Shown here: positions 20,146 through 56,007 of the stretch, in pieces
Position numbering within the stretch: the first letter of the stretch is position 1
How the letters are laid out: each line of letters opens with the position of its first letter
Assembly (NCBI GenBank): GCA_010405405.1
Contig: MU004235.1
Coordinates: 882,538-946,537 of the forward strand
Source of the DNA: Microthyrium microscopicum
Taxonomy: Eukaryota
Direction of reading: 5' to 3'
DNA: 64,000 nt
Made by a program: the position numbers and the translations under genes
The notes under the pieces: generated by a model
The model's input: the letters and a program-made list of their open reading frames with translations, nothing else
What the model was told of the DNA's origin: nothing
Databases searched by the model: none

Positions 20146-23100
20146 GTCTAGGCTGATGTACGGTCGATCTTGATAGGAGCTTTGCGGGGACTCGGTGATT
20201 TATTGAGGGTTGGAGGGACAGCACACGCTTGCAATGGTTGAAGATGATGTTGGCGGCAAGACGCGCGATACTCTGGGCCTACGCCCGAGCAACTAATGTT
20301 ATTGTTGGCACGGAATGGTGAAGGCTGAGCGTCGCGCACGATGCTCAGTGAAAGTTTATTGAGGTTTGAGGTGAGGAGAGGGAAGCGGTGGAGAGGGGCG
20401 AGGAGCAGGGCAAATATAAATAATAAGACTTTTGTAAGCGGGCGCACAGTGGGCAGGGAGTGGCAGAAGGGCGTGGACGGTTGCGGTGTAGTTTTCGTGA
20501 AATTAGAGAGATTTGTCAGGCAATGTGCAGAACTCAGTACTCAGTAGTCTAGAGTAGAGTAGAGCCTAGTAAAGGTGAAGATTGGAGGTGCAGTCAAAAG
20601 CGGCAGCAGCGATGATGACCGACGTGCAGCACAGGATTCCGCCGTGTTTTGCTGCACTGCAAAAGCCTGTACGGTATGGCAAGCGGTTTGGTAAGAACCA
20701 GACCAGAGCGCGCAAGACCAGAGTTCTGGCTGCCAGCGGAACGTGGTTCAATTTACTAGGTCCCAATGGTTTCAGTGGGAAATAATGATGCTGATGAGGA
20801 ATCAGGATCGATGTCAATTAATGAAAGGTGGAATGGAATAATGGCCTGAAGAAGTGGTGTGTCTCGTGTCTCGACCGCCGCTTTCTCTCTTGCTGAAGCT
20901 GATTCTTGCATGTGGTAAGAAGATTTGAAGGTCTGCTGCTCCCTCTGCTCTAATTCTTGTCCGATCGGACTAGCAAAATGCTCTAGGGTAAAGAAGGGTT
21001 TTGCGACAGCGAGGCTGTGCTGCAGCTGGACTGGCTTGGATTGCAAACGAACCACACCCTTTTCAGATGGAATCTACTAATGCCAACTGCCGAGGAGTAG
21101 GGAGGTAGCCCGAATGGATTTGGAGTGATAGTGGGGCCTGAATTTCTCGTTGGCAATTAGAAGGATGAAAGTGATATCTGCAAAATCATTTTATGCGAAC
21201 AAGGCAAAAGGAGTACAATGTACAACTGCTAGTATTCACTGTAACCGCTGGTACACTACGACCAAGCAAGTGCCGCTCTACAGATATGGTTCCTGAACCA
21301 GAACACAAGATGAGGCTAAAGGTTGGTCAAGGTAAACGCTTGGCTCTAGTACTCTACCAAGAAAAGTCCCTGCCAAGCTTTGATGCCCAGACAATTACTC
21401 GGAATATGAACGTCCTTCGACTTCATCCCTTTAGTCATTTTTTCAACGGCAGTACAACATTACCTCTAAAGCCCTATGATGGATCAGGTTAATCGAAAAT
21501 AGCAATAAGAACGGATTCAGTAGGATCTGGATGTGGAACTTATGAAGAGATAGCGAAATGTCGGCAGAGTTCCACCCTTCTAACGGTACCAGCAATCCAA
21601 CAACTCCTACTCAGGTACATCGCCACGTTTCCATTCACAATGAGAGTTTGCAGTAGTGGCATCTACTTACACCTGTTCCATACATGTGCTCATCAGACCA
21701 TATAGGGCTACGATCCTCTCCATCAATAGCAACGATAATCCTCCAGCGTTATGTTACTTTGTCCATCCATATCAGTCCCAGCGGCAAACGAACTAAGTTA
21801 CCATGACCAACCAGTATCCGTCCCCAGTCTCTACATGCTGTTCCTTGTCTTTACTTTAGCGACTTGTTCCTCCCAGCCTATGAGGCTACTTGAAAATTCG
21901 GGGATCCTACTTGTCAAAAGCCTCAAGCTTTTACGCCCCATGTATGAGTTCAAGGGACCGCATGTGGGGCTGTACTCTATCTCTCATGTCTGGAGAAAGA
22001 CAGCTTTTCATTATTCTTTCCGAATGTTCGGCTATCCACTAGCTCGACTAGCACACGGCGGTCCACACGGAAAAACAAGCTCGGCCACGCGATCCACGAG
22101 TTCTAGAACCATGGGAATAACTACCAAAACGGAGTCGTGTGCGGGGAAGTAGGGGAACACCGGTAGCCAGCTGAAGCTCAACACCAAGTCTGTAAGTTGA
22201 GATATCACGCAAGGTCTGTCGTGGCAGCATTGGCAGTACTGATAAGTATATCAGCTTCCGGTATGTGTTTTTTCATATATCAAAGTAGAGGCCATCCTCA
22301 TCCTCTTCAGTAGCTCTGTAGTGCATGTTTCCGATGCACCTACCGATCAGCATAGCTCTAAAATGCTTGATAGACGGCATCATTGTCTGCAATATTCAGT
22401 TCTTCTTTCATGAATAGACATAGAGGCTTTGCAATCTTCAATCAGACTGTTAGATGCTTTACGCATGGAAAGTTTTATGGCGCTTCAAGTCTGGACTGTC
22501 CTCAAACGCACCAAGGCTGTGAAGCCTGTATCGGACCCAGACTACTTCCCATACTTACAAATTCTCCGCTTCATTATGCAATTCCATCTCCAGGGTATAG
22601 GTACTCTAGACTCTACTCCGTTGTCAACTTGAAGAACAAAAATTCCTAATCAGGCTCGCCCTTTTTTACAACTTGACATCATCATCATACCAAACTAACT
22701 CGACATTGTAAAATATTCACGCGGCATATATCAAAGCGCCAATTTCCAAATCAACTCTTATCAGCCTTTGCCCCTTTTTGCCGCACCATACAGTACGCAA
22801 TATATGTAGCCTTCTGGTCGTTGTTCATTGGTCAATATGCAGAACTCCCCTACCAGAACTGCACAGATTGCATCGGTAGTCTCTCTCCTTCCAAAACCTA
22901 CCACAATCGAACCGCGTGTCTTACTCACAATGCCTTGAGAAAAGCTCATCGCAGCTACATAGTGGTGCCCTAGATCCCGTGCAATCAATTTGGTTACCGT
23001 AGTATCCCACTCTACTTCCCGTCAATGAGTGTAGTCGGGTCCGGGACGTCGCGACGGCTCGCTAGGGCCCTCGCCCAGGTTCCCAAGGTAGGTATCCAAG

Positions 23101-23819
23101 GTACCGTGAGCTTTCTTATATTGATATTTTATATTTGCGCCAACGAAAGCGTGAACGCTGTACCTATGCGCTTCTTCAGCTATACAGCTTACATCCCACT
23201 CATCTCCCCCTCTACCGTATATCGTATACTGTATATCAGTGAGCACTGTCAAGCACCGGTTTTGAAGGGACTCCTCGTCTTTGTATCCTCGTCGACAGAG
23301 TTTCGTTGTCTTATGTTCGACAGAGCGTGTTCTAGGGATTGAAGCAGACTGTAATCGTTGTCGATAGCGTTCTTAGGAAGAGCTTTATGATATTGTACTC
23401 TCACTATCCGATGGTACAGTACTAGGCATGCTAGAAATCGCAGCTGACTTGGGAGATAATCTATTACTCGGATTCGCATGATCGTCCAGTTGCTTGTGGC
23501 CAATCCCAGCCTGATAGCTCAACCGACTTCCCGGTCCTCTATTTGAATATCACCGCTTTCAGGACTTTCTATATTCCCTATATTCTGCAATTGGATGGTA
23601 CGTTGCGACAAGCATCTATCTAGATTTCCATGGCACTTCTATTCATTTATAGTGGTTCTTGTACACATGGTCGTACTAGGTTTTACCAGTTTGCTGGAGT
23701 CCAATGCTTTCGGTAATGAAGAAGATGTTCCCGCGTTCTCGAAATGTTGTTCATAATCGCTCTTTGAATCCTTAGACGTGTTACCACTCAACCTTGGAAG
23801 TCACTCATTGTCCGCTATC

Positions 23820-25237
23820 ATGAAGGCCCCAGTGACTATTTTTCTCGCGACCGCTACTTTGGCGGCAGGCGCTACCATCCAGCGAAGACAAGGCCTTGCG
23901 CAACTGGCTAAGGAGGTACCATCTCTCACTCCAATTGTGATAGATGCGCAGCCACAAGTTCGCAAAAACGCCACAAGAAAACTGCTGCGATTCGGTCCTT
24001 TCAAACTTCCCGCCAACAAGGTGACTTCCGATACTCCACTTTGAAGAGACCGGCAGTCTAACATACTTATGTAGGGAGATGCCGTCGCCCCAAAGCCCGG
24101 CATGGATGCTGGACACAGCCATGGTGGAGCTCCCAAGAGCCAGGAATTGGGCTCGCTTCTAAAAGAGCAAAAGCCAATGGATCCAAACGGCTTCATAACT
24201 ACAAAACGTGTAATTGGAGGTTTCTGCAGTGACTGTACAGTTCTTGCTGGCAAAACGACTACTGTTTTCGAGAATGGAGACCATGCAACTGTAGCAAAAG
24301 GCGTGTACCTTCATCACGCGCTCGCTATTGATGCGACAAAGGCAAATCCAACATATCTTCCTGGCTGCCCCAAAGATGCCGCAGTTTCAAAGGGAGGTGC
24401 TGCGTTCTCGCCGTTCTTGGGTGGAGCTGTTGATGAGTTCACTCAGTATTATACGACTCCTGATGGCAAGTTCAACTCGGGTTATTACATTGGGAACAAC
24501 AGTGAGTCAAATGTTCTTTTATTGTTAACAGTCGATGTCTAACCTGTTATACCTAGCCTTCCTACTTCAAACCGAGATTGTAAATTATCAACCTACGGAG
24601 CAGAACGTGTACGTTCAAGTGGACATTGAATACCTTCCTGGAAAAGTTGGCATTGATGCCTCGCAGAGCACGTTGGCTTCAACGGGTGAGTTGAGTCTGC
24701 TACCCAAAGCGTCGCATCACTGACAAATATCAGCTTGTGACAACGCTCTACAAGTCTTTAAACCAAAGAAAGGAGAGAAGGGCGAAATAGTAAGCAGTGA
24801 CTATGTCGTTCCGAGATCAGGCTCTCTCCTTTCCATTCGAGGCCGTAAGTATCAGCTTGCCACGTCCCAGCCGACTTCCAAGCATGCTGATATTCATAGA
24901 TATGCATGACGGAGGCAGTGCGGTCAAGGTCAAGGTCAACGGCAAAGAAGTCTGCTCTTCAAATGCCATCTACGGAGGAACCGGTGCAACACTCATCGTC
25001 GATGGCAAGGAATGGCAGACGATTACCAAGATGACGGAATGTCCTGGGCCTGTTCCAATCAAGAAAGATGATAAGATACAAGTCATCGCCGCATTCGATA
25101 CTATCGCTCATCCCCCGTGAGTCTCCTCTGTTCAAGTCCCTGAAAGACCAGATGCTAATTCTACCAGGCGTGAGTCGCATGGCGAGGAACAAGAGGGAAT
25201 GGGCATCATCACTTTCGTATTTGTACCAGAAACATGA
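23820..25237 (+). CDS. Secreted protein resembling the stress-up-regulated Nod19 / PHM-like copper monooxygenase fold; 6 exons (23820-24020, 24075-24501, 24557-24685, 24734-24844, 24900-25116, 25168-25237)
   Basis: Signal peptide MKAPVTIFLATATLAAGA. Five GT-AG introns join a continuous frame containing C-x2-C, YLHH, GHMHDGG and a C-terminal MGI. Confidence 0.8.
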
Positions 25238-26057
25238 ACGGATACGAATGATGCGAACGAGGTTGAACAAAGTCCCGCCAACAGGTTGCAAATCCATGAG
25301 ACGTAGAGTTTATATTGCCTATGTTGCATAAACTTGATAAGTGAGCCGATACTGGACTTCATTGTTGAAATCGCACATGTAAAAGCATTTCGTACGCCCC
25401 CCAAACCATCACAACAATCTCACATCAACTCCATTCCACAAGACCCACCAGACGCCTACGCAGTATCTACTGTACTGTACCTAGCTCTATACTTTCTGCA
25501 TGTCCCATTGGCCAAAGTCTAAAGCTCCCCTACCGCAGGTATTGCATCGGAAGTCCAGGCTTCATACATATGCAATGCACGCTTTGATATTCTGAAAACA
25601 CCAGCACATGTGTTTGCGTGTGTGTTTCCTCTCAATGATGACCCGGAGCCAACCTGACGGGTCCGCGTGTATCGAGCTGTTGGGTGTAAATAAATGCCGC
25701 AAAATGTGTTCACCGCGGGCCTGGCCGGGACATGAAAGCCCTTGTCAATCAACGGTAGGAAGATGATGGAATCCGTTTGATATGGCAATTTTGGTATGGT
25801 GATTGGGTTTGTGCGATTAGGGAGATTGCGAGATATGTTCGCGATCTGGTATTTTGGGTTGGATTTGTAAGGTTGTACCTTTGTGCTGTCAATACTAGAA
25901 ACTTGCTGTGAGGTTGATATCAGTCTTGCCGTGTATTAGTGGTATGCCTATGATAAACAAGCGTATTATGTTGCACTAGTTCAAACACATCACGGTAACT
26001 GCTAGTATCTCGCATTGAAATGATGGGCAATCAGTTCCGCTTCAAGTGACTACAACC

Positions 26058-28520
26058 TCATTCGACCCCGGCAGCCTGCGAACTCGCTTGGCCCTCTTCA
26101 TCTTCCTCAGCAGCATCCTCTGCCTCCGCCTGCTCCACCCTCTCTCTGCCCATCGCCTTAGCCACATCCACCAGCTTCTTCTTCTCCCCTTCACCCTTTC
26201 CCATTCCCGCCTCCACCAGTTTCGCCAGCCCTGCTGGACGACTAAAATCCGTAATGTCTTTATGCTCGCGCAGATGCTTAGTGTTCTCGACGCGCTTGGT
26301 GAGAAAGAGCGTAGGCCGGTGATGTTGTTTTTCAGCAAGGATGCGCTGGATCTCTTCCTCGTATGCTTTTTCATAGACGTTCATATCAGCCGCGCCAGGA
26401 CTTTCGCTAACAATGGGCCCGAGGCCGGGATCGGGTGGAGGTGCATCGCAGTGTGGACCGATGAGGAGGAAGAGTTGATCTTCGAGGGGGTCGTGGGCTT
26501 GACCTTTGCCAGTTTCCGAGCGGGGAGATATTGCGCCTGTTGGGTCGTCTGATGAGTTTGCTGAAAGACTGGGTCGCTCTTGTGGAGGGGGTAATGTTTG
26601 TTTTTGTTTTTGTTGTTGGTGTTGGTGTTCGGGTGGTAGTGTTTCTTTAGATTCAGGACTTTCTATGGCATCAGTATCTGACATGTCTACATCTTCGTTG
26701 ATTGGCTCGTATTCATGCTTTAAGGTCATTTCTTCTTTAATGTCGATATCTCTGTGTATGCCTTTGGTTGCTAGTGGACCTTCGACCGGATGTCGATTAG
26801 ATAGGCTGTCAGAATGTGTCCGTTTCTCTAGTTGCCGTGGTGGTTGCACTATCTTGTTGCCGAATATCCCTTGGACTAGACTGGGCGTTTTGTGAAGAAG
26901 CCTTTTGAATTTGCTTGCCGCTTTCATCTGACAACGTTAAGATAGGAACGTTGTACAGTTATAAGCTGCTACGTACCACAGTAATCATTCGCCTCAGGGG
27001 TTCCGTAATGGCAGCTGCAACCTCCTGGTCAGTCGGAGGCTCAATGATGTTCATGATGTTTTCTTCTTTCGGGAGAAGCTCATCAGTGCCATCTTTTGTA
27101 ACCCAGGGATGTGCCTATTGCTGTTATTACCATCTTTTCGCCGCATAGGTAGCACACATACCCTTATCCCGTCCATATCAATTCTTTTTGCCGGATTTTT
27201 TTCCAGCAAACGTAGAAAAAGATGCTTGAGCTGCGGATCAATATCGCCTGGTACATTCACAGCGTCGTCCTTGATCGATTCGAAGAGATCGAGCATTCCT
27301 GTCTTTTCAAACGGAATATGACCGAATACAAGACAGTACAACGTGACGCCCATGGACCATATGTCGACGGCTCGACCAGAAACTTCACCATGCTTTGCTA
27401 CACAAAGCTCGGGTGGCATAAAAGCTGGACTTCCTGCAGATTTGGTTGTTGTCATCTCAGAATCTTTAGAGAACATCTCTGAAACTCCAAAGTCGACTAT
27501 CTTAACCACATCATCTTGGGTGACTAGGCAGTTGTCGGGTTTTATATCTCTGTGAATAATGCCTTGAGCATGCACTGCCAGAGAGTTAGTTCATGACAAC
27601 AGGCCAGGGTAACAAACAGGCTGTACAATATTCCAGGCCTAGAATCATATCTCGTAACCAGTGTCGACACTGCTCCAAGCTATAAGGTTGTGCAGGCTCT
27701 CCAAGACCAACTTTCATCACGACACCTTTTTTGCACATCTCCAACACCATGTAGAGCGAGTCCTCGTGAGGATCATCAAGCACCTCAATCAATGATACCA
27801 CATTGGGATGATCCAGCTTCTTCATGATAGCAATCTCCTCTTTGATAAGATCAAGCGAGCTTGCGGCGCCGGGCTCTGGTGACATGGACTGACGATGCAT
27901 CGGCTCATTGAAATTACCATCTGTTCCTCCATGCTGTTTACGATACCTGGATCTTCTATACCCAAATTTCGACTGTCGCAGTAGGTTCGATTGGGCTCGT
28001 TTTCGTAATCGCGACTTGGAGAATTCTTTGACGGCCTAAGTGTTTGTCAGAAGCATACCCTAAATTTCGCATTGTGGCTTATCTCATACATATTCCCTTC
28101 CAAATTGATCCACTGCCAGATGAACGGAACCAAACGATCCTCTCCCAATTTCTTGTTGTATGAGGTACTGATTTATACGGTGTTCAGCGGGGCCATCATC
28201 TTCGCTGTTGCTGTATTTGGATTGGGCATTGAGGGTTGTCTACCCGATGATAGGTAAGGTCAGCTATACTCCAGACATTACGTGCGATACAACAGACTTT
28301 GACAGGTTTCCTAGGATTGGTAGATCGTTTTTCGTGATGTCGTGAGGGACTTTGGTATTCGGGCGCAGAGCTAGATTAAGGCAGTTGGCGGTTAGTTCCG
28401 TGTCAATCGCTGAGCGGGGAACTGCAGCATGACCTACATATGCCTAACGGTGGAAGGTTTGAAGTCTGGATTGTTACGGAGGGCAGAGATATGATCCTCA
28501 TGGCTGTTGGAGGCCGACAT
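26058..28520 (-). CDS. cmkC: Calcium/calmodulin-dependent protein kinase kinase (CaMKK), multi-exon
   Basis: HRINQYLIQQEIGRGSFGSVHLAVDQFGREY|AVKEFSKSRLRKRAQSNLL, IIHRDIKPDN, DFGVSEMF, KSAGSPAFMPPE across GT-AG introns. The start codon and first exons are less certain, and the symbol is by resemblance to the Aspergillus CaMKK. Confidence 0.9.
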
Positions 28521-28803
28521 TGGGAATTGCGGCGTAGTGGAAGATGGCGCACAGCGGTTTGCGATTGCGATTGAGGATAGAGGAATTGGAGGGGTTGATA
28601 GAGTATGAGAGATTAGAGCAGTGACGAAATAGTTGACTGGGGATACACAGGGGATCAAAGTTATATTATAAACGGTGGGGATGTGGTCTCCCGTGTCAGA
28701 GGTTGTGGATATTCTGATCAATTTAAACAGTAGAAGCCGTTGGAGAAATGCATTGTTAGCGAAGGGTCTTCGACATGTATGGCTAGAGCTCAGTACTACT
28801 GTA

Positions 28804-28880
28804 CCTCTGCTGCGCGTTCTGTGGTTATACAGGGCAAAATCTGGCCTGTTGATTCAGCTGCAGATCTAGGATCCTGATTA
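28804..28880 (+). repeat. Left terminal inverted repeat of the Tc1-like element
   Basis: cctctgctgcgcgttctgtgg...; the outer 56 bp are identical to the right TIR, near identity runs to about 77 bp, and weaker similarity continues to about 28925. Confidence 0.95.
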
Positions 28881-29059
28881 GGGGAGACCCTAGACTAGAG
28901 GAGTATACTATAGTACAAATTTATATAGTAGCATACTTAGCAGTTCTACATATTACCATAGATAATATATCTTAATATCTAACTTCATAACATTCTTAGT
29001 ATTATTTAAATCCTTAGATCTTGCTCGTTTTAACTAATCTCGTTATCCCGTCTCTTCTT

Positions 29060-30441: not shown

Positions 30442-30801
30442 TATTAAAGATTAGGGTTATAGAGTAGGTAAGAAGGTTATAAGATACTTAATAGATTAGG
30501 TATATAGAAATAGAGATAAGAGTAATTACTAAGGAACTATAAGGAGATTCCTTAGCCTTTATCTTATTACCTAGGAACCTCTAAGGTTCCTCTCTAAGCT
30601 AGAATAGTCTATCTATAAGCTAAGGTACCTTAGAGGTACGTTTAGCTACTAATTATAATAGTTAGGAACCTATTAGTTCTCTTAACTATAAAATATACTA
30701 AAGCTAAAGAAGTAGCTTTATTAGCTTCTAATAGCTATTAAGCTAAGGTACTTAGGCTATAATACCTATCTTAGAGAGTCTATTAGGTTTAATTCCTAAT
30801 A
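30442..30801 (-). repeat. 3' LTR, Gypsy family C
   Basis: Direct repeat of 46535-46894, differing by transitions; PPT adjacent at about 30802-30811. Confidence 0.95.
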
Positions 30802-31501
30802 TTATCTCCTTAATAAGGACCTAAACGTCCTTATAGGTCTCTAAAGGATTAACTACGTTTTAATAGTACTAATATGCTTTAGAATATATTATATTATAAT
30901 AGTATAAACTACTTAGCTACTATCTAGCTAGCTAGATAATAATCTTAGTAAATTCTAGCAAATTTATTATTAGTTTTAAACGTTACTTAAAGGAGTACTC
31001 CTTAAATAATAATTTATAAAGCTAAACGTTACTATTAGGTACTTATTTAGATTTATTTAGGTTTATTAAGGACTTAGGTATTTTTAAGTTTCCTTAGGCT
31101 ATTACCTTAAGCCTATCTAATCCGTAGGTTATTACCTACTAAGGGCGACTTCCTTCTTTAGAATCTTTACCTATAGTAAAAATTAATATTAGAGCTTTCC
31201 TTAATAAGAAGTACTTAATAAAGTAAGTATTTACTCTTTATTAATCTAATTAAGTAGGAGAGTATTAAATAAGGTATATTTAATCTTATAATTACGTACT
31301 TCTTCTAATTCTTTTTTATCCTACTTTTATAGAATTAAGGTATATACCTAAGTAAACTCTAGCTAATTAAGTAAAGCTAATCTTTATAAATAGGGCTATA
31401 ATATAAGAATAAGTCTTAGTTAGTAGTCTTAATATTTTACTAGTAGCTTCTTTATAAATCTACTTAATATACTTTATATCCTTTTGTACTTATTCTCTCT
31501 A

Positions 31502-33137
31502 ATAGCTACTATAAAAGATAAAGTAAGAGCTAATAAGGCTCTAAATAGACCTAGTTTATCTCTATCTAATATCTCTAAGGTCTCTAAGGATACTTTTAAG
31601 GTCTCTAAGAATACTATTACTTTGCTAAAGACTCTAATTGCTAGTATTATAAAACTAGCTAATTCTACTAATACTAATACTACTAAAAAGGTAACTAATA
31701 AGGTTAAATTTATTAATAGTACCTAAATTAATGCTAATAATAATTGTATTAAATTATTAAGTTTAGGCTACTCCTCTTTAGAGCCTTCTAAATTTAAGGA
31801 AATTAAAAAGGATACTACCTAGGCTAAGAAGAAGAGAAAGGCTCCTAAGTATAACTATAATAGTAAATCTAAACCTTCTTAGCCTAACATAAAGTAAATA
31901 TATAATAATAGTATTATATATACTAATAAGGCTTAGGCTTAGTTTAAATTGTACTAGACCTCTTTTATTTATAACGTATTAATTAATTATAGTTAGTTAA
32001 GTAGTAAATATCTTCTATATAACTCTAATAATAATAAGATAAAACTATCTAACGTAGATAAGTCTATTCTATATAAGAATAAGACTAAGTTAATTATTAA
32101 ATAGTTTCTTATACTTAATCTATATTAGTAATATACTAAAGTATATACTAAGACCTTTCTATATACTAATCTAAAGGATTAGTGCTATATAGCTTCTAAG
32201 GATTATATATTAGCCTTTAAGGTTTAAGATAGTTACTACTATATAACTTATAAGACTACTAAGTCCTATTAGTAGTATTTTAAGGTAAGTTATTCCTAAT
32301 TAATTTAATTTAAATCTAATTATTACTAATTATTTTTTAGGTTATTCCTTATAAGAAGAGTATTACTAAGGACCTTCTTTAGAAGCGTTATAATATAATA
32401 AAGGTCTATATACTTTATTAGTAAACCTATAATAGTAATCTAAGTAAGTATAATATAGGTTAGCTCCTTTATATTAAAAAAGTAGTTTATATTACTAATA
32501 AGGACGTTATAAAGACTATCTAGATATAAGTAAACTCTTTTATTATACTTAGGTTTAAACTAATATAAATAAGTATATCTATATTAATACTATAAATAAT
32601 ATCTTTTCTCTATATTCTAGTATTACTAAGAGTAAATATAATAGTATCTATATAATACTAGTATATTATAGAAATAGTAAAAAGGTCTTTATAATTAAGA
32701 AGGCTACCTATTACTCTAAAGTAGCTTTACTTAAAGCTATTATTAGTATTACTTATATTAAGCGCTATAATAACCTCTATGCTTATTATTATAGATTTAA
32801 ATTACTTATAAATAGTAGCTAGGAGGGTATAAGTACTTTAATTATATTACTTAAATTCTAACTAACTCTATTCTAAGTTATAAGTACTTTATTACGTTAA
32901 ATTAGTAATCTTACTAACGTCGTAAAGATACTTACTTCTTAATAAGCTAATAGCGCTAAAAAGAAGGAGAAGGCTTCTAATATAAGTTAGTTTATAACTC
33001 TTTAGAGCTAGATTAATAAGTATAAGCTTAGAATAAATAAGTAGATAGTTCTTTGTTGCTATTTAGTTATAATGAGTTAGATTAATTCTAAGGATAATAA
33101 TTTAGAGTTTAAAGAGTTTAAAGAGTCTAAAGAGTAG
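31502..33137 (+). pseudogene. Antisense, intron-containing extra gene inside Gypsy family C; unknown product
   Basis: Plus-strand frame from ATA (RIP-mutated ATG) at 31502, with only TAA/TAG interruptions; intron gtaagt...ctaat...tag at 32285-32340; acidic end (de-RIP DDDSESEESEESEE*). Confidence 0.7.
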
Positions 33138-33138
33138 A

Positions 33139-33362
33139 TGTAAGGAGCTAACAGGCACAATTAGGTAAGCAGAAAGTAGCTAGTATTATAGGATCTAAGT
33201 ACAAAGAGAAGAGATCTAGAAATATAGCTATAGATATAAAGAAGTAGGAGCCTAGGATATCCTTAGATATACTAACCCTAAATAGGATAAAGAAATCTTA
33301 TCTATAGGATTAGATCTTAGCATCTAAATACTATAATACTAAACCTATAAGGATTTCTTATA
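33139..33362 (-). repeat. 3' LTR, Gypsy family A
   Basis: Direct repeat of 40627-40850; PPT adjacent at about 33365-33377. Confidence 0.95.
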
Positions 33363-36300
33363 TAACTCTCCTCCTCTAAAATAAACCTTATAAGCTATAT
33401 CCTAATCTAATTTATTCTAGTCTAGTCTAAGCTAATCTAGGCTAGGCTAGGCTAGTCTATATAAATACAAAACTTCTTTATATATATTACTACTAAGGAA
33501 TATAGTAATATGCTATCTACTTACCTTAGTACTATCTAAATTTATTTAATAAAAAAAAGAATATCTATTTAAGTTAGTTTATAGTATTCTATAATCCCTT
33601 TAGTAGTATAAATTAAAAACTAAACTAGGGTATAATACTACTAATAAAAATAAATAAATATAATACTTTTTATACTATATAATCTTAATTTATAGGTAGT
33701 CTATTAGCATCATAATCTTCTTCTTTAACTTTATTTATTAGTAAAAACTAAGAAAGGTATAGACTAAGCTTCTAAAGATAAAGCCTATAGAATTCTAATA
33801 TAGTATTAAATATATTAATAATATCCTTCTAGGACTACTAAGTTTTATTATAAAATCCTATCTATTTAATTTTATATTTAAGCACTTTATTCTTACTTCT
33901 ACTATCCTATTTACTATTAATAATAGTATTAATAAGCTATTCTTCTTTACCTTCTTTTTTATTAATAACTACTAGAAGTAAGTTTAATTCCTATAATAAG
34001 TATATATTATTATTAATTAGATATAGTAGCTAGACATAGAATACTAAGTATATCTTTATTAATTTAAAAAGATCTAATTTATAAGTTACTCTATTAATTT
34101 TGCACAATACCTTAAAGGGACTAGTACTTTTACTATTAAGTATTTTTAAAAGATAAGTTATATTATAATTTTAAACGTTAAGTTATACCTAGTCTCTAGA
34201 ATAGAGATCTAGTACTAGACGTTAATACTTATTAATATAGAGCTTTTATTAAGCCTAAGCCTATACTAATTACTCTTTTAAGAACTTATAAAGCTTCTCT
34301 TAACTATTCTATACTTAATTAGTAGTAATAACTTCTTTACGCACTATAATAGAAGCATATAACGCTTTAGGTAGTAAATAGTAAGTAGACTTAAGTCCTA
34401 ATTTTAGTAGAAAACTATTTTATGCCTTAAAAAGTATAAAACTAGTAGTAGTACTTATAGTAAAATTTACTACAAATTTAATAAATAGTAATAGGGCTAC
34501 CTAATTATTCTAATCCTAATTAATAAAGAATCTAAGATACTATTTTAAGGTAGTAATAGTTATTTTAATAATACTATTAGACTCTAGATACTATATAGTA
34601 CTTAATCTTAATATAATGCCTATACATTCACATAGGCAACCCTAAAAGGTAAATATAAATTAAGTTCCCTAATCTAAAAGGATAGAGTCTAGCTAACTAT
34701 ATAGCTTCTATACTTAATTAATAAATACTATAACTATTATTTCTACTAAAAGACTTAGGAGGATAATAAACTATTATAATTATATTAAATAATTAATAAT
34801 AACTATAATATACTAGTAAACTATACCCTAATAGGTATAGCATAGTAATAAGATAGCAAAGTCTATAAAGATATTAAACTAGGCCTAATCTAGTAAAGAA
34901 AATAAGCAAAGAAGCCTTTACTTTTTTTAGCGTACTAGCTTTAAAAAGATATAGTAATAACCTTTAATATATTTCTTAATATATTCTAACATTCTTAGCT
35001 ACTAGTAATCTTATTAAAGGTAGTAGTAGGTTATTATAGTTCCTCTATAGCTTATAACTTTATATTAATACGCCTATTTTATTACTTTATTTTATAAATA
35101 TATTATTAGTATAAATAACTTTTATTAATAAAGGATAGTACTATTTAGCAAAGCCTTATAATCTATTAATTTAATTTAATCTTAATCTAGCACTCTAAAG
35201 GGCAAGAAGTAGTCTTTCTATGCCTTTACTAGTTAAATTATAATTAGTAACTTATCTTTCTTACTTACCTTTATTACTTCCTATATAAACTACTCTAAGT
35301 TAAAATCTAGGGATTTAGTATTAACTAGTAGTAAATTATCTAAACTAGCTAGAGCTCTATTTTAAGAGCTCCTTATAATAGGTTCTAAATTAGACTCTCC
35401 TACTATAGTAATATTTAGCTTATCTAACGTAAGCATAGCTATCTATATAAAAAATAAGGTAATTAGGTTAATAAGGATTATAGCTAGCTTAATAGCTTAT
35501 TTAGTGCTAAATTAATACAAAAATAGAAGTAGTTAATACTATTACTTAACCTATAAGTCTTTATTACTTTATAGTACGTCTTATAATCTTTAGGTTAAAG
35601 TATTAGCTTTACTATTATCCTTACTAAGGTGGTATTTAATTAAAAAGTAGAATTATAATAGAAATTTAGCCTAGCGTATTTAATAGCATATAAGCTTCTT
35701 AGTCTTTATAAAGGTTTAAAAATTCTAATAATCTAAGAACACTTTTATAATATCTTTAGTACTAAATAACTTAGGTTCTTACTCTTTAAAGGCGTAGATA
35801 ATAGCAAGTAGTTCTTTATTATAAATATTATAATTATATTTCACTAGTAATATTTTCTTAGAGAGAAAAGTAACTAGTCTTAGATTACTATTTATATCTT
35901 TTTATAATAATATAGTAGTATAAGCCTAATCTAATACGTCTATTTCTATCTAAGTTTCCTTAGTATAATTAAAGTATTATAGAATTAGTATACTAGTAAA
36001 GTCTACTTTTAGCTTCTTAAAAGCTTATTCCTTAGGCCTATTAGGGTTCTAGGGAAATATAGTTAAAGTATTCTTCTAAGTAAAATTTATTAATAGTGTA
36101 GCTATAGTAGAGTAATTAAAGATAAATCATTAGTAGAAGTTAGTAAATCTAAGGAATACTTATATATCTTTAAGATAACTTAGTTATTCCTAGTTAACTA
36201 TAGTATTAACCTTTAAAAAGTCTATCTTAATACTTTCTATAGTAATAATTAGACTAAGGTATTTTACCTCTTAGATAGTAAACTCTAACTTCTTAATATT

Positions 36301-39300
36301 AAGAAATAAGCCTATACGTTCTAATACGTCTAGTACTAAATATATATAGGTATTATATTCTTCTAGTATCTTACTAAATACTAGAATATTATCTAAATAA
36401 ATAGTTATAAAATTATCTAAAAACTATATTAGTATATAATTAATATACGCTTAAAATGTCCCTAGTCCCCTTATAAGGCTAAAGGGTAGTACTTTAAACT
36501 TAAATAGGCTATAGTATATTAAGAATGCTATTTTATATTTATCTCTAAGTTTAATATAAATGCATTTAAAAGTAATAATAACGTTAAACTTAGAGTAATA
36601 CTTTACCTTTATAAAGTATATAAGCGTCTTACTAATAAGTAGTAGAATGTTACTATTTTTAATAGTAATATTATTTAACCTATAGTAATTAATATAGACA
36701 TAGATGCCTCTTTCTAGCTTACTTACGTAAAATATAGATATAGTATATTAAGATTTTAAACCTATAGCAAAACTGTGCTAAAGTAGACTCTTAATATATT
36801 ATTTAATAACTAAGGCTTATTTTAGTAATATTAATACAAATTAGCGTTTTAGAATTTTAACGTTAAGGACAAAGTTAATAGTATAGTTATATTTACTATA
36901 ATAAGACGTAAGGATATTTAAACGCTTTAAATTAAAGACTTTAAAATATTAGTAAAAATATTTTAGAATAAGTTTTAAAATCTCTTCTTTTAATAAGTAA
37001 GAGTAATCTTACTTATTTTACTATTTAAGATAATCTTCCTCTAATATAGCATATATAGTAAGGTTTATAGTAAATCTATTATTATTATCTTTATTATTAT
37101 TAGAAGGTTTCTTTTCTTTTTTATTATTAAAATCTTTAGACTAGAATATATTAACTATAGCGTCTTTACGCTTTATTAGTTTCTTAAACGCTACTATAGA
37201 TATAAAAGCAATATCTAATTCTTTAAGTAATTCTAAGTTTATAGATTATCCTTTTAGGTCTATAGTAATTAGGCGTTATAATATAATATAATTTATAATA
37301 TATCTTATATTATAGAAGGTTAATATTCTTAAACCTCTATATAGGTCAACTTTATATTAATCTAGCTAGGGTACTCTTAGGATTAGATCATAAGAAGCTA
37401 CTTTTATAACAAAATAGCTAATCTACTTAACGTAGCATCTAATATGTAGGTTAAGGATAATAGCTTTATTAACTATAGATACTAACTTACTATTAGTAAG
37501 TATTACTAAGTATAAATATATAAGTTAAAAAGTAGGAATACTATATTATTAAAGATAATAAGGGTTAATAATTCCTATTACGCTACTATTAGTATTAATT
37601 AAAATACTAGTATTAGAGTAAGTTAAATGCTATAGCATAAATACTAAGCTAATAGTAGTCTATTATAATCTAATAATAAGATCTTTCTTTTTAATATCTT
37701 AAGACTATACTACTAGTATAATAGAGGCTAGTAAAATATAGATAGCGTATAAATATACTAAGAAGATACGTCTCTTATAAATAGCATCTTTATACTTAAG
37801 GCGCTAAATATACTAGTAAAGGTAGCTAAGTATTTTCTTAGTCTTTTCTTAAGCTTTTTCTTTAATATTCTTATAGTCTTCTTCTACTTAATAAAATATC
37901 TCCTTAGCTTTCTTAGTATTTTAGTACTATTCCTTATTATATTAATAGAATATTTCCTTTACGCGCTTAGTTATAGCATTAAAAGCGCGTTTCTTTCTTT
38001 TATTATATACTTTAGTCTTATTTAGCTCCTCTTTACAACTTAGTAAAGGAGCGTCTAGTTTAAAGACTAATAATTATTATCCTTAATAATATCCTCTATA
38101 GAGGATTACTATTCTTTTTAAACTTTTATAAATATTATTACTAAAGGTATAACTAAGGCTTTAATCTTATTATTAGATAAAGGTTCCTAATCTTTATATA
38201 GAGTAGTCTTATTAAAGTAGTAGTAACCCTTTTAACTATAATAAACGTAACGTTTGTCTATTTTTAAGGCGTTAAAGACGTCTATAGAATAGTTAACATT
38301 ACTAGCTTTATTATTTTAGGCCCCCTTATTAGTAGACTAATTATTATTATAGCTATAAGAGTTATTATTTATAGTAATAAGCTTATAGTTAATTTAGTAT
38401 ATAACTAAGTAAAGTTAAGTATAAAATATAACAAAGCTACTAAAATACTAGCCTACTAGTAAGTCTATAAACTTATAGTTAATAAGATCTTATAATTTAA
38501 TAATCTTCTTATACTTAAATAGTTCTATATCTACTAAATTTATTAAAAAGTAGCTAATAAAGGCTTAAAGACTTTCTATATCTTTTATCTTAGTATTTAA
38601 GAACTTTAGCTATACCTTAGTATCTTTAAAAGCGTTCTTAGAGTAATAATATCTATCTAGGTTTACCTATATCTTTTCTATAGTATAATAAGGGTCCTTT
38701 AACTTATAACCTTTATATATAACTATAATACTATAGGCAAGGCTAGTATAATAGATATAGATAAACTTAATTTTCTTCTTCTTAGTAGAGACGTAAAGGT
38801 ATATATTCTTATTAAGAAATATATCTAATATTTTCTCCTTCTACTATTTATAGTACGTAAGTTTACCTTTAAAATTACTAGGTTCTTTAAACTTTATAAG
38901 TATTACTAGAGAGCTACTATTAGCTATTAATAATAGCAAGATATAACGTATTTTTTAAGCTTAGAGCTATAGATATAAAACTACTAAATATATTACTTAT
39001 AGTATAAAGCGACCTAATAAAAAGTTATCCTCTAAATCCTTTAGATTAATATAGGCTTAATTTAAATTTATCTAAAGTTTATCCTTAAGCTCTTAGATTT
39101 AGTAGTAAAGGTTAATAACTAACTCACAATACTATAAATTAGTATTACGTTTCTTTACTAGTTTAGTAAGAGCTACCTATTTATTTAAATAAGTAATAGT
39201 TAGTACTAGCTTATAGTTATAGCAAATTTAACTAGTAAGCGCTTTAAGATTTATTATTATTTACTAATAAGTAGCTACCTCTTCCTATAGTACTTCTACT

Positions 39301-40626
39301 AATTTACTTAGTTAACCTATTTCTATATTAGCATCTATAAGTTCTCCTATTAGCTAATCTTAAAGTTTTTAAGTAGACTAGTAATATAATACTATAGTTT
39401 AATTAATTACTAATATAGTATATAGTTATTTAAAGAATTAATCTTCTTCTATAAACTTAATATATTAGTCTAGATGCTTACTATTAGATATTAATATATA
39501 ATGTTTCTAAAGAGTAGTAAAATTATTAGGATTATCTTAAAGAACTATTAATATTTACTTCTCTACCTTTAGTCTTACTCTATATAATACCTATATAAAT
39601 AAAGGCTTTATGCTAGTAAGTAATATAACTTTACTATTAAGGTTTACTAGTTCTAAGGGTAAGTAAGGTAAGAACGACATAAGAACGTTATAAGGTTCTT
39701 TTTTATATACTAGTAATTCTAACTAATAGTAGATATTAATAAGTAATCTTACTTCTAACGCGCTTTTATCTAGACTACTAACAATAGTACTAGAAGTTAC
39801 TACTTCTTTACTTTTTAATCCTAGCTCTTTTATTATGCTTGCTAGCATAATAAATGCTATAATTAATAATCTAGCAATGATCTTATAAGGTTATTAAATA
39901 TTAATACTAACTTAAGTATTTTAATAAAGAAATTCCTTATCTTTATTATCTAAAGCTACTTTAGGTAATAGAGGTAACTTTTTAATAGACTTAACTACTA
40001 AGATACTCTCTTGCTATAGCGTTAACATAACAATAGACTATTAATTAGTTCCTACATCTAGGACAACTAGCTTCTTAGCAAAATAGCTATCTCTACTATA
40101 GTAAGATAAAACTAAATAGCTTTAAATACTAACGCTACTATACTTATAGGCAATATAAGAGTTACTTAATGCTAGTTTAAGACTAGAAATAAGTAGCGCC
40201 TTACTTATAGTAATATATAGCTAAAATAATACGATATTTCTTAATAAATTAGAACTAATTTAATAGAATAATAGATATAGATTTAATAAGGAATAAGGTA
40301 AGAGTATTTATAGTTAGTAAAAAAGAAGTAGTATAAACGCCTTTATGGATTTAAGAAGAATACTATAAGGCAAAGCTTAGGCTTCTAAGTAGTCTTTATT
40401 CTAGCAAATAATGCTAAATTTATATTACTCTAGTTAATATTTATAAATTTACTAGTACCTTTAGTAACGCTAATCCTAATTAAGGATAGTATTACTAAAT
40501 ACTAATTAGTTAGATCTATAGTATAACTATAATTAAGATAGGAATTAATAAACGCTTCTACGCGTTTATTAATAATGCGTAAATTTATATATAGAGTATA
40601 AATTTAGTATAGAGGTACTTAGATTA

Positions 40627-40850
40627 TATAAGGAGCTAATAGGCACGATTAAGTGAATAGAAAGTAGCTAGTATTATAGGATCTAAGTACGGAGAGAAGA
40701 GATCTAGAAATATAGTTATAGATACAAAGAAGTAGGAGCCTAGGATATCCTTAGATACACTAATCCTAAATAGGATAAAGAGATCTTATCTATAGGATTA
40801 GATCTTAGCATCTAAATACTATAATACTAAACCTATAAGGATTCCTCATA
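40627..40850 (-). repeat. 5' LTR, Gypsy family A
   Basis: Direct repeat of 33139-33362; followed by TSD gtaga. Confidence 0.95.
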
Positions 40851-43800
40851 GTAGATGTAGTATTTAGTAGATATATCTAGCATTAGATTAATATATCTAG
40901 TATCTAATAAGTAAGGTTAATTATATTTTAGGTTTATTATAAGCTATTTATTAGTACTTAGTAGCTATTAGGTTCTATTTAAATTAATTTATATAAATAG
41001 TATAAGATAGTTTCTTCTAATAAAATACTTTCTTAAATTTCTAAGTCCTTTCTTATAAACCTAAATAGTACTTAAGGGTATATTCCTATAAACTTAAAAT
41101 TATTATTTTAAGGTATTTAAAGGGTACTCCTTTAAGGGTTAATAAGTAAAGCTAAAGTAATACTAATAGTTTTAAGTTTAGGTTTAAAATTAATTCTATA
41201 TCTAGTTCTAAATTTTCTTTAAGTCTTTTCTATTTAGACTATATTTATATATATATCTATAGGAACCTATTTGTTTTAAGGTATTATAATAGTACTATTT
41301 AGGTACTATTTAGTTTTATCTAAATAGGCTTATCTTAATTATAAGTAAAGTAAATCGTTATTATATATCTATATACGCTATAAAGTAACTATGCTTTTAT
41401 ACTTATTTTCTTTATAAAAAGAGGCTTATCTTAAGTCTTATTATAACTATTTTAGTCTACTTAGCCCTCTCTTAGCTAGTATAGGTTTAGTAAGTACTAA
41501 AGGCTTCTTTAGATATCTCTTTAGCTTCTTAGGCTCTAGATAAGGTTTATCTAAGTTAAGTTATTCTAATTTATATTTAGTTACTTCTATTAGAGCTAAT
41601 TTAGCTAAGGAGATACTCTTTTTCTTTAACTTCTCTTAGTAGCGCTTTAGTATAACTAAGGAGAAGTTACTAGTAAGTTTCTAGCTTACTTTAAACGTAA
41701 GGTAGTTCTTCTACTTTACTTTATAGTAATAGGTACTATCTTTATTAACCTTATATCTAATTACGCCTTTAACCTTATAGTAGTTAATTTCTTTAGGGTT
41801 TAAGGTTTTCTAAAGTAAGACTATTTACTATAAGAAGCATATATTAAGTATATATTATTATAATAAAGAGATATAGAAGACGTTATAAACTAGAGCGCTC
41901 TTAGGTAGGTTAATATAGTATATATTATAATTAATAACCTTTATTACTTTAAAAAAGCCTATATACTTAATATCTAGTTTCTTTTTAGACTTAGCTATTC
42001 TAATATTCTTTATATTAAATAGAACTTAGTTATTTACTTTTAAGGTAACGTCCTTATAGCCTTTATTATAGTATTTAGCTTATAAGGTTTAAATATTCTC
42101 TAAATAAGCCTAAAAGGCTTTTTAAAGGAATAGAATATATTCTACTAGTTTCTTTATATTAGGAGTAGTACCTATTAGGTACTCTTTAAGTACTTCTAGT
42201 ATATATAAGTATCTACCTATATATATTATAAATAAAGTAATACTAGTTAAGCTATATATACTATTATTATATATAAACTTAGTAAGATTAAGCTTTTTAG
42301 CCTAATTATCTTACTTCTAGCTATAGTAAATATATAGATAGTACTTAATTTCTTAGTTTTAACGCTCTATTTACTTATTTATCTAGAGTTAGAACGTAGT
42401 AGATAGCTTCTATTAGATTTCTAAATAGTAAAGAAATATATTCTAGAACTTAGAGATAAATATAGAGCTTCTATTAGATATAATTATATTTAGTATGCTA
42501 TAAAGTTATACTACCTTACGTAAGAAGAGCTTAATAAGATTATTTACGTTTATATCTTTATAATAAGGTACGTAATAAGCTATTTTAATTAGTTTATAGA
42601 TAACTACTATAATAGAGTTATATAGCTACCTTTAAAAGATACTTAAAAATAAGTTAATAATAAAATTAACTATAATATCTTCCTAGGAGACTATTAGTAC
42701 TAGTAGGGATAAAAGGAGCCTATTTTAGCCTTATTTAATAGACGTATTTTATTTATACTCTAAATAGACTACGTAGTACTCTTAGATATCCTTATTAATA
42801 TTATTCTAAGTATAATAGCGTTAAATTTTTTCTAACGTCTTATGTTAGCCTTTATAGCCTTTTTCTAAAGAGTTATTATAGAAACATTAAAGAACTTAGA
42901 CTTTATTATTCTTTATAGTAACCTTTATTTATAAATAGGTCTATTTATCTTTTATTAGCTTAATAAGGAAGCTATTAGATACGTTTAACGTAGTAATAAT
43001 GTTTACTTCCTAAGAATTATTTCTTAAGTACTATAATAAGGTACTAATAGATATAACTAAGGCGTTAATAAACCTAACTAAGTCTTTATTAGGCTTAGGG
43101 GCCTTAAATAGTTATAGTTTATCTTAAATAAGGTTTAATAAAGCATTTATAATTCTTTTCTATTTTGTATTGCTTAAGAAGATATAGTCTAGTCTTTATA
43201 AGAGTCTATCTATAAGGTTTATCTTCCTTAGATAGTACTTAACGTTAAACTTAAACTTAGTAAGAAAATCTACCTATTTTATATATATAGTAAAAATATT
43301 TTAGAACGTATTAAGTAAATAGAGGTTTATATAATTTATTAGGACTAAGAACTTTAGAATACTATATAGGTACTTATAAAAGATCTTTATAGAGTTAATA
43401 ATAGCTAGGAACTTTTACTATAGGGTCCTATAGTAACTCTTAGGTCCTAATAGCTTTCTTAAGTAGAACGCTATAGGTTACTATTAGCTCTCTTAGCCTA
43501 GCTTAGTTTACTTCTAACTTAAAATGCTATAAATTACTTACCTAAAGGCGTCTATCTTTAGATAAGTCTCTAATATAAGATTATAGTAAGTAAGGATTAA
43601 TATACGTATAAAAGTAGCTTTTAGGTTATTAAAGAATTAAATAGCTTTAAGAGGAAGGTTAATAGAAACTAATTCCTTATTACGTAGCTATTAGCTTTTT
43701 AGGGCCTACCCTAGAAGCTTCTTAATTAAAGAATTTAATAAGGAAGTAATATAAGAGAAGTTAGTAATAAAACGTTAATAGTAGTTTATAAAGCTAATAA

Positions 43801-46534
43801 ACTTTCTTACTTAGTATATATTTTATAGTATTAGCTAATCTATAACTATTATAATCTATTCTAGTTCTATTATAGTACTATTTAAAGTTATAATATACCT
43901 AAGGTACTTAGTTTAGTCTATATAGAAGCTATACTTTAATAGCTTAGCGTATAACTTAAACTTAATAAGTCTTTTAAGTATCTTCTTTATATATTTAATA
44001 TAATCTTCTTTATTCTTAAAGAAGATAAGAATATTATTAAGGTAGATAATATAAGTTACGTTAATAAGGCTATATAGAGCTTAGTTAATATATACTTAGA
44101 AAGTAGTAAAAGCGTTAATAAGTCTAAAGAGCATTACTTAGTACTTAAAAGACCTATATTTAGTTTAGAATACTATCTTTTACTTATTACTAGTATAAAT
44201 ATAAATATAATAGTATACTTTATAAAGGTCTAGGCTTATAAAGAGCTTAGCTCTTAATAGTTAGTCTAATAACTTTTTAATTAGTAGTAAAGTATAATAG
44301 TCCTTAACTATAATATTATTTAAGCCTCTATAGTTTATATATAGACGTAAGGTACTATCCTTCTTCTTTATAAAGATAATTAAGGCTTTAGTAAGAGACT
44401 AAGATTTATAAATAAATCTCCTCTTAAGATTTCTCTTAAGGTATTTGCATAGAATGACTAGTTTTACTTTTAATAGGCTATAAATAAGCTAATAAAGTAT
44501 ACTTATACCTAGCTTAAGGTTAATAGCTAGGTTCTATAAACTATATTTTACTAAATCCTATACTTTATCTTTACTAAAAGCTTTTATAAGCTCTTTATAG
44601 TAATATAGTAAGTCTTATAGGCTAATATAGTCTAATAAACCTACTAGATACTTAAAGAGCTAAGTAGATTTATCTTAACTTAATTAGAGTAACTCTTCTA
44701 AGAAGATAAAGCTAATTTTACTATAATAGTTATTTTTTAGATAAATAAAAGATAAAGTCTTAGCCTTAAAGTCTAGTAAAGAGTTCTAGTTCTTAAGCTA
44801 GGGTATCTTTATAATAATTATATAGTATAGTAAGTTTATAATATAAAATAATACTTTATTAGTCTTTAAGATTTTATTAAAGTTAATTACTATAACTTTA
44901 GTAGTTACTACCTTATAGATAGCTATAGGCATACTATTTAGGTACTTAGCTAACTTTTTTAGAAGATAATATATCTTTAATTAAAGCTTCTTAGCTAAGG
45001 CGTAGTCTATAATATTAAAATAGGCTCTACTATCTATTATTATACTCTATAATGTATAATCTTAGTTTACTTAATTCTAAGTAGTCCCTTATAGGATAAT
45101 TTAGTATAATTTCTTTAATTAGTATACCTTCTTATCTAGAATCCTTTTATTTTTTACTACTTCTAGAACTTAAGTAATAATAACCTTATAGAAGTTACTA
45201 AGAAGGTTAAGGACTAGATTATTCGTAATAGAAGTTATAAGATCCTAGTTAGCTACTTTATAGCTTAGTCTTTTTCTTTAATTCTTTTTAGCTTTAGGTT
45301 AGGGTAGTTATAGGCTATATAGCCTACTTTAGTATAGTTCTAGCACTTGCCTTTACTAGGGTTACTAAGGAATAGCTATTTAACTTTAGGCATTATATTA
45401 CTCTTTAGTTTATTTAGCTTTAAAGCCTTATTAGAAAGGCTTAGTCTAGACTTTTTTAACTTATTTCTCTAGTAATCTTATTAAGTCTTATCCTCTAGAT
45501 TTATAGATATTAAACGCTATTTAGAGAATTTACTATCCTTAGTATCTTTCTTAAGAGTAGTTAGTATCTTCTAGTTACTAATAGATCTTAAGTACTTTAA
45601 AATATATTAAGATAAGACTTCTTTAGCTATCTTAACTATATAGTCTAAGTTAAAGATTATATTATTTCTAAGGCGAGTAGATAGTTTATTACTAAAGAAT
45701 AATAAGTAAATTAATATATTATTAATTTTATACTTATAAAAGAAAGGCATAAGCTTATTAAAGTATTCTTAGGAAGTCTTTTCCTCTATTATAGTAGTTA
45801 AGAGGCTCTAAAAGGCTTTATAACGCCTCTTAATAAGTAAACTAAGGAGTTTAAAGGCCTACTATTCTATAAAGGCCTATATAGATTTATATTAGTCTAG
45901 TTTAGCTAGCTAGGTTTAAAAATTAACGTAATTATCCTAGGTTAGTTATATAACCTCTTTATTAAGATAATTATAGGCTTAAAGAATTACTAGGTATAGG
46001 TCCTCTTTATATTTCTTTATAGTAAGTATATTAGTTATATTAAAGACTTAATCCTTATACTCTTATAGACTTTTAGCTTTATATATTTATAGTTTATTAC
46101 TATTATAAGCTAATTTAGAGCTATTATATTTAATATAGGCTAAAATAGCTAGGCTAGCGTTATATTAACCTTATTTATTAATCTATTTAACTAAGTAGAG
46201 TTCTCTATATTTATAGGCTACTTTTATTGCTTTAAGTTATTTAATTTTAAGCATATTATATATTTACTATATTTTAGCTTATAGTTATTTTAGCGTCTCT
46301 TTTATATTTACTACTAGTTCTAAATAGGCTTATTCTATATTAATAGAGTTGTCTATAGAGCTACTTAGTCCTACTAGGGTTAGTATAGCTATATCTAGTA
46401 TAACTAAATTTAGTCTAGCTAGTTTTACTCTAGGGGCCTTATTCTTAGGTTTTATTAGTTTATTACTTATAACTAATTGTAGTATTTTAAAGGAAAAGCT
46501 TTATAGGTACTTTATTAGTAAGAAGTAATTATAA

Positions 46535-55931: not shown

Positions 55932-56007
55932 CAATCAGATCCTAGATCTGTAGCTGAATCAACAGGCCAGATTTTGCCCTGTATAACCACAGAACGCGCA
56001 GCAGAGG
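55932..56007 (-). repeat. Right terminal inverted repeat of the Tc1-like element
   Basis: Reverse complement of 28804-28880; followed by TA. Confidence 0.95.

Follow-up and report, generated by a model that had tools for sequence, protein, structure and literature searches.

Architecture of the element and its setting

The window, that is, the whole 64,000-nt stretch of DNA analysed here, consists of gene-rich stretches with ~47% G+C that alternate with blocks in which this value drops to 17-27%. The blocks low in G+C bear the marks of repeat-induced point mutation (RIP), with a CpA/TpG depletion index of 0.01-0.17 in the 18 loci fetched; RIP suggests that the fungus is a filamentous ascomycete. 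The window contains a copy of a retrotransposon, hereafter family C, whose gag-pol lies on the minus strand with its domains in the order typical of Gypsy elements (Table 1). Its LTRs are 92.8% alike, and over the 363 columns compared they differ by 26 transitions and no transversions. In pol, RNase H and SH3_Tf2-1 exceed the Pfam cut-off, Integrase_H2C2 stays under it, and the RT profile finds the RT of Ty3 with an E value of 1.9e-23. Two LTRs with a target-site duplication, the order RT-RNase H-integrase and a Ty3-related RT place the element in Ty3/Gypsy. Chromodomain-like residues can be read by eye at the end of the integrase, with no Pfam match in the RIP-damaged copy; family C is probably a fungal Gypsy of the chromovirus type with a putative chromodomain.

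Downstream of pol, the element has an extra region of ~2.9 kb that reaches to the 3' LTR, larger than the 2.5 kb of a preliminary description of this locus. It is split in two parts (30802-33137 and 40856-41402) because a 7.7-kb element is nested within it, where the antisense frame discussed below ends; this site is empty in the other copies of family C. Once the nested element is subtracted, family C measures 8.7 kb, and five uninterrupted copies span 8708-8739 bp. A second copy of the nested element, 91% alike and in the opposite orientation, occupies positions 1-3855 of the window.

Table 1. Features of the family C element, with positions in the window
Feature	Position	Strand	Evidence and remarks
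3' LTR	30442-30801	-	360 bp; 5-bp target duplication at outer ends
Polypurine tract (PPT) beside 3' LTR	30802-30813	-	Pyrimidine run on the plus strand; C/T variation among copies
Non-coding spacer (antisense-gene promoter and leader presumed here)	30814-31400	+	No frame consistently favoured
Possible leader intron, 105 nt	31401-31505	+	Donor G in 13/16 rows; branch-like site; AG end
First coding exon, ~260 codons	31506-32284	+	Holds a low-complexity N-terminal part, the basic motif and the putative cysteine cluster; stop pattern and codon model
In-frame 21-nt indel	31583-31603	+	One unit of a 7-residue repeat; marks two subfamilies
KKKRK basic motif, candidate nuclear localisation signal	31826-31840	+	Variable among copies
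Putative RIP-eroded six-cysteine cluster, spacing x2-x16-x18-x2-x8	32123-32278	+	Two of six Cys seen directly, four inferred; pattern test
Intron 1, 56 nt, phase 0	32285-32340	+	GT..AG; branch-like site; two codons past last cysteine
Coding exon 2	32341-32525	+	Codon model, copy alignment
Intron 2, 47 nt, phase 2	32526-32572	+	Donor G in 4/15 and acceptor G in 8/15 aligned rows
Coding exon 3	32573-32828	+	Stop pattern, codon model
Intron 3, 48 nt, phase 0	32829-32876	+	Acceptor G in 7/14 rows; branch-like site; donor inferred, G in no row
Last exon, basic stretch and acidic tail	32877-33137	+	Weakest coding signal; 9/21 subfamily transversions
Nested LTR element, another family	33138-40850	.	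LTRs 33138-33362 and 40626-40850; 5-bp duplication
Non-coding spacer, pol end to antisense-gene end	40856-41402	.	Codon model, copy alignment
Second PPT-like motif near pol end	41403-41414	-	Six C/T-variable columns, 41407-41412
pol (protease, RT, RNase H, integrase, chromodomain-like end)	41415-45300	-	RIP-destroyed; ends approximate
gag and leader	45301-46534	-	Approximate; second minus-strand frame favoured by codon model
5' LTR	46535-46894	-	Paired with 3' LTR

Copies of family C in the genome

A DNA search of the 37-Mb, 58-contig genome returned 20 long matches, corresponding to 18 elements after two split copies were joined. The extra region is present in all 18. Gathering the copies through the LTR, as had been suggested at the outset, led to the same set: of 39 matches, 35 are close and all of these could be assigned to the 18 elements by coordinate pairing, and the rest are two matches at 81-82% identity and two short fragments. 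The extra region is 85-92% identical among copies and the differences are almost all transitions. There is no intact copy, as every one in the genome has been killed by RIP; in the small-share DNA run X5, further RIP-type variants appeared, at low depth only. The idea that the extra segment is an insertion independent of the element was rejected: it has no termini of its own, it occurs in all copies, and the sole nested element belongs to a separate family.

Two of the copies, L039 and L040 (G000:C3:2540488-2559448), are 10.2 kb apart and identical over the extra region, either from a recent duplication or as an assembly duplicate, and L040 was left out of the counts.

Other elements of the genome offer terms of comparison. 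An undamaged Gypsy with identical 226-bp LTRs (L073:596-8260, G000:C2) lacks an extra 3' region, so that the antisense gene is not common to all the Gypsy families of this genome. An undamaged RT-bearing element (L076-L077, G000:C2:940000-951000) has frames of 1379, 1267 and 246 codons and internal tandem repeats, and gave no match to the pol of family C.

A spliced gene on the antisense strand

Family C carries the remains of a real spliced gene, antisense to gag-pol. The plus-strand frame reported earlier between pol and the 3' LTR is real, and stops are depleted in it: those fixed in all copies amount to 24 of 491 codons, and the five other frames together have 288 in 2449 (Fisher p 1.7e-6, an optimistic value because the gene frame was chosen after inspection). 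As a control, pol has 83 such stops among the 1233 codons of its own frame and 127-178 of 1233 in the others. No stop common to all copies occurs at 31433-31819. A codon model trained on the RIP-damaged pol, which recovered 8 of 10 held-out pol windows, picks the gene frame in 15 of 19 windows of 90 nt from position 31435 on. The frame that it follows shifts twice, both times at GT-AG introns, and in the window spanning intron 1 it picks the post-intron frame; it fails over the window of intron 3 and over two of the three windows of the last exon.

The 56-nt intron 1 had already been recognised and its boundaries and branch-like site stand; its removal alone leaves the frame broken, as intron 2 was missed and has to be removed as well. 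This second intron accounts for the change of frame after exon 2, and the open spliced frame holds once it is added. The copy in the window has lost both of its boundary G's, which other copies retain. The further intron suspected near 32826-32877 finds its best placement as intron 3. In total, the product is encoded by ~490 codons in four coding exons, separated by three coding introns of phases 0-2-0; neither the start codon nor the true stop has a fixed position that the damaged copies reveal. The KKKRK motif and the acidic tail of the preliminary description were both located, the latter in less damaged copies. Upstream, family C has a possible leader intron, and leader introns can be seen by eye in the intact relatives L083, L086 and L097, which are presented below.

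The 21-nt indel, in frame, is the sole indel shared among copies of the region, and the unit is absent from L041, L042, L043, L044, L046 and L048. A one-base deletion at KKKRK in L041 and L042 and a 57-nt deletion in one copy represent later damage.

Could AT-rich DNA damaged by RIP simply have been read as a gene? Stops are everywhere and the signal of the last exon is weak, as such an artefact would have it. Against it stand the depletion of stops, the codon model, the in-frame indel, the existence of relatives and the fact that introns account for both frame changes, so that this explanation is largely refuted and scarcely credible. An env-like reading of the extra gene was also rejected, as the gene is antisense and spliced.

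A probable cysteine cluster and the intact relatives

Direct searches with the exons of family C, in which stops were read as X, gave no matches among 1.84 billion representative sequences, none scored out of 8000 in a word-index search, two at chance level in Pfam, and nothing in the PDB sequences or in viral contigs. These blank results weigh little because pol, queried likewise, gave no matches either, RIP blinding the search. Without composition correction, HMM scans yielded nothing but noise.

Non-RIPed relatives, whose search had been proposed from the start, were instead reached through the RT. From 197 relatives ranked by RIP compatibility, an alignment led to 80 metagenome and 7 viral-collection loci. 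Candidates were damaged in silico and 97 loci were ranked by their score against the pol of family C, relatedness meaning here the position in this ranking and not in a tree. The top three are L086, L097 and L083, and in each the stretch from pol to the 3' LTR contains an antisense gene of 259-286 codons, open and spliced. In all three genes six cysteines form a cluster, an intron of phase 0 follows two codons past the last of them, and the series of intron phases is 0-2-0; the cluster and this first intron recur in L084 and L085. When 55 pol ends with room downstream were scanned, many of them in loci damaged by RIP, the cluster was found antisense in six (L084, L085, L086, L094, L097 and L124) and in sense in one; L083 was missed here because its contig is permuted.

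In family C this cluster had escaped the first reading of the locus, as RIP turned its cysteines largely into tyrosines. A Cys codon survives at 32183 in 2 of 15 copies, and another, which precedes the first donor by three codons, at 32276 in one copy out of 14; the four other places are Tyr codons in all copies. Unseen cysteines are to be expected, since only 66 of 507 TpA columns retain CpA or TpG in any copy. With ranges set when the target was already known, the pattern of cluster plus donor occurs at one of 84 donor-like sites in the RIP DNA of the window, namely at intron 1, and at none of 169 in 20 other RIP loci. Where pol ends, family C and the three closest relatives also have a second PPT-like motif in common. 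The two copies lie at 5660 and 7580 in L086, at 3341 and 5212 in L097 and at 6167 and 947 in L083. [quoted passage not shown]

Alignment methods do not join the genes. Comparing family C with the antisense gene of the relatives by tblastn gave no matches, either raw or after in-silico damage, and HH-align gave a probability of 0.04%. A profile of the damaged relatives, run on five copies, ranked the cluster first in one, second in three and third in one, and the rivals ahead of it were mostly a Tyr-rich part of the RT. This lack of alignable similarity, the frequency of Tyr in RIP-damaged frames and an N-terminal part far longer in family C than in L083-L086 and L097 would be expected of a real gene unrelated to the six-cysteine family, with tyrosines and phases agreeing by chance. 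Such a coincidence appears very improbable given that the pattern is found at one of 253 donor-like sites, and that this one is intron 1, with a Cys codon exactly three codons before the donor and with both the phases and the doubled PPT matching the three closest relatives. On the evidence of layout and pattern, the family C gene is likely to be homologous to the six-cysteine antisense genes of the intact relatives.

As for the nature of the domain, Zn(II)2Cys6 clusters follow the spacing Cx2Cx6Cx5-12Cx2Cx6-8C. Both Zn(II)2Cys6 (PF00172) and DUF3716 (PF12511) have six cysteines in two halves, each led by CxxC, and so would the putative cluster of family C; its loops, in contrast, are much longer than in the canonical arrangement, and neither family C nor L083-L086 and L097 has a Pfam match to these families. 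Sub-threshold matches appear in more distant elements, to Zn_clus in L094 (E 0.026) and L124 (E 0.12) and to DUF3716 in L075. Among structural resources, the ESM Atlas returned only scores < 0.8 for the natural first exons of L086 and L097, a PDB search with the cluster of the relatives gave 0 matches, and the AlphaFold model of their exon, from a five-exon alignment, had a pLDDT of 39.6 and was unusable. The protein is probably zinc-binding and nuclear, judging from the putative cluster and the basic motif; the preliminary description had proposed a nuclear accessory protein encoded by the element, and of this, the encoding by the element stands and "nuclear" derives from these two features only.

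Further antisense genes were noticed along the way. A lightly RIP-damaged Gypsy (L078:2612-4600, G000:C5) has a spliced one with a long low-complexity N-terminal part, a Cys cluster and a phase-0 intron two codons past the last cysteine place. In L075 (G000:C6:2133902-2141488), a Gypsy of a different family that is un-RIPed and has identical LTRs of 162 bp, the extra region contains the Cys-rich antisense frame with the weak DUF3716 match (E 0.033) and a short TCAA-type repeat. Two more distant Gypsy elements (L094:12324-12725 and L124:2839-3411, both minus) contain antisense genes with the canonical Zn2Cys6 spacing and a coiled-coil-like stretch.

Divergence between subfamilies

The 21-nt indel divides the copies into groups of 10 and 6 elements. 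Transversions that distinguish them are not products of RIP, which cannot yield transversions, and they are confined to the exons: 21 of them, in 15 clusters, fall in 1458 exon columns, and none in 6416 columns elsewhere (151 of intron, 1251 of spacer and 5014 of gag-pol; excluding the pol-side row L047 from the final count left the result unchanged). The 701 columns of 30805-31505 also have none. At the cluster level the enrichment in exons has a p of 4e-5 against non-coding DNA alone, that is, 1402 columns without transversions. The changes are spread over all four exons, and the Tyr/Cys places of the cluster show no difference between the subfamilies. Codon positions 1-2 hold 16 of the 21 transversions, with ~14 expected for unconstrained change; in pol, five of the six subfamily-linked transitions are at position 3.

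How should this pattern be read? Divergence restricted to the exons, next to a conserved pol, is consistent with an accessory protein under diversifying selection. It may also stem from a recombination tract that covers the antisense gene only, as the absence of transversions from 151 intron columns has a p of only 0.11. The gene might even be a captured host gene carried as a passenger without function for the element, its divergence reflecting relaxed constraint or such a tract; an intron-bearing structure is host-like, and positions 1-2 are hit about as in neutral change. Yet neutral decay should also have struck the non-coding columns, and intact open genes with the same layout occupy the same site in five relatives. 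In addition, there is no host copy: protein searches of the fungus's own genome with the antisense gene gave family C places only (18/18 matches each). A mere passenger is accordingly judged quite improbable. The concentration of amino-acid change in the antisense gene, and not in pol or the spacers, is a hint of conflict with the host.

A proposed mechanism

Introns on the antisense strand are absent from the strand that is packaged, and for that reason they escape splicing during replication and are kept; those of family C have persisted because they are antisense to the genomic RNA. The promoter that drives the spliced antisense message would lie within the 3' LTR or close to it. The product of this message, ~490 residues long, would start with a flexible N-terminal part, followed by the basic motif and by a zinc-binding cluster of six cysteines, and would end with a C-terminal part encoded by three exons. 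From its basic motif and the presumed zinc cluster, this protein would be expected to enter the nucleus, where it may recognise its own element and keep it transcribed against host silencing, as an activator or as an anti-silencing factor. This self-activating role, in which the protein binds its own element to sustain expression, is put forward tentatively, with slightly less than even confidence.

Indirect backing for it comes from the canonical Zn2Cys6 spacing and sub-threshold Zn_clus matches of more distant elements, from repeated motifs in two intact relatives, and from an analogy with the plant protein VANC, discussed below. Short motifs repeated in non-coding DNA, counted post hoc, number 9 in 1202 nt of L086 versus 2 in 3885 nt of its pol, and 5 in 1017 nt of L083 versus 1 in 3181 nt of pol; in L097 the signal is weak (3 versus 0), and in family C it does not exceed the control (5.4 versus a control maximum of 5.4).

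The same gene could serve other ends. Its protein might block a host defence protein acting in RNA silencing, heterochromatin or particle restriction, the cysteines forming a structural zinc fold. Changes scattered over all four exons that spare the Tyr/Cys places of the cluster, loops longer than those of DNA-binding Zn2Cys6 domains and the lack of a repeated motif above control in family C all suit this proposal; the basic motif beside the cluster, the canonical spacing in L094 and L124 and the repeated motifs of L086 and L083 speak against it, and it is regarded as somewhat unlikely. Another option is that the gene limits its own element, with the antisense RNA that overlaps the genomic RNA, or the protein, damping transposition as a form of copy-number control. 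A transcript running from pol to the 3' LTR would indeed pair with the genomic RNA, as proposed for plant antisense frames in PMC7264820. Control by RNA alone leaves the kept frame, the cysteine cluster, the intron phases and the divergence at the protein level unexplained, and self-limitation seems rather improbable.

Returning to self-activation, its broadest version would be that a clade of fungal Gypsy elements encodes a spliced antisense zinc-cluster protein that recognises the repeated motifs of its own element and lifts silencing, the two alleles of family C being a record of the arms race. Taken as a whole this is speculative and unlikely; if true, it would be the retrotransposon counterpart of a plant system, VANC.

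VANC belongs to the VANDAL transposons of Arabidopsis, and PMC5735166 reports binding and anti-silencing for it, with target motifs repeated in VANDAL transposons. As described there, it resembles the family C gene in being an element-encoded, intron-containing and fast-changing accessory gene; short non-coding repeats like its targets are seen in the two intact relatives L086 and L083 and not above control in family C. VANC differs in that it comes from a plant DNA transposon, and its likeness to family C concerns the way in which the two would work.

Relation to known antisense genes

Extra genes running backwards in LTR retrotransposons are already known, and that of family C is one more. 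Its coding frame runs against gag-pol in the interval from pol to the 3' LTR and is present in 18/18 elements, which makes it an antisense aORF of the aORF-3R type. Plant examples are gene23 of maize Grande, rice RIRE2, Silene Retand and bean PvRetro13 (PMC7264820). They share with family C position, orientation, presence in all copies and a proposed nuclear regulatory role. The plant frames have no host homologue; for family C its own genome is blank and public searches are weakened by RIP. In contrast, the plant frames belong to other Gypsy lineages and another kingdom, and the domains named for them are SMC-like and transposase-28, with no cysteine cluster (PMC7264820).

The preliminary description considered such genes to be known mainly from plants. 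They are not restricted to plants, as there is a fungal precedent, brtn of the Botrytis element Boty, an additional antisense gene situated after pol and before the 3' LTR (doi 10.1016/j.virol.2011.06.020, as cited in PMC7264820, PMC8365987 and PMC4227169). According to these citing accounts, Boty is, like family C, a fungal Gypsy of the chromodomain type with its extra antisense gene in the same place. Compared by description only, family C differs in its ~490 codons, three coding introns and putative six-cysteine cluster. The passages available of 10.1101/2022.03.07.483234 do not mention brtn, and the words antisense, intron and zinc are absent from the text of PMC3248453. The literature searched, which takes in few subscription papers and not the one on brtn, describes no antisense gene with a cysteine cluster in a fungal Gypsy. 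What is new here is the link to an intact gene family with six cysteines and three introns, together with the divergence restricted to exons.

What antisense extra genes do in LTR retrotransposons has yet to be settled (PMC7264820). One such gene is now tied to a recognisable family, with its six-cysteine cluster and fixed intron signature, and because intact natural members exist in public environmental contigs, the protein by itself can be assayed for its localisation, its binding of zinc and its targets in DNA. For annotators, the RIP-damaged 3' regions of fungal Gypsy elements can hide spliced genes whose cysteines are read as tyrosines.

Other features of the window

Between RIP blocks, at 17600-28900, lies an 11-kb gene island with ~48% G+C. 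It includes two kinase-like genes, named by eye from their motifs, at 18682-20199 and ~27050-28250, both on the minus strand. A near-perfect inverted match of 73 nt (28801-28873 and 55938-56010) marks the edges of an AT-rich block.
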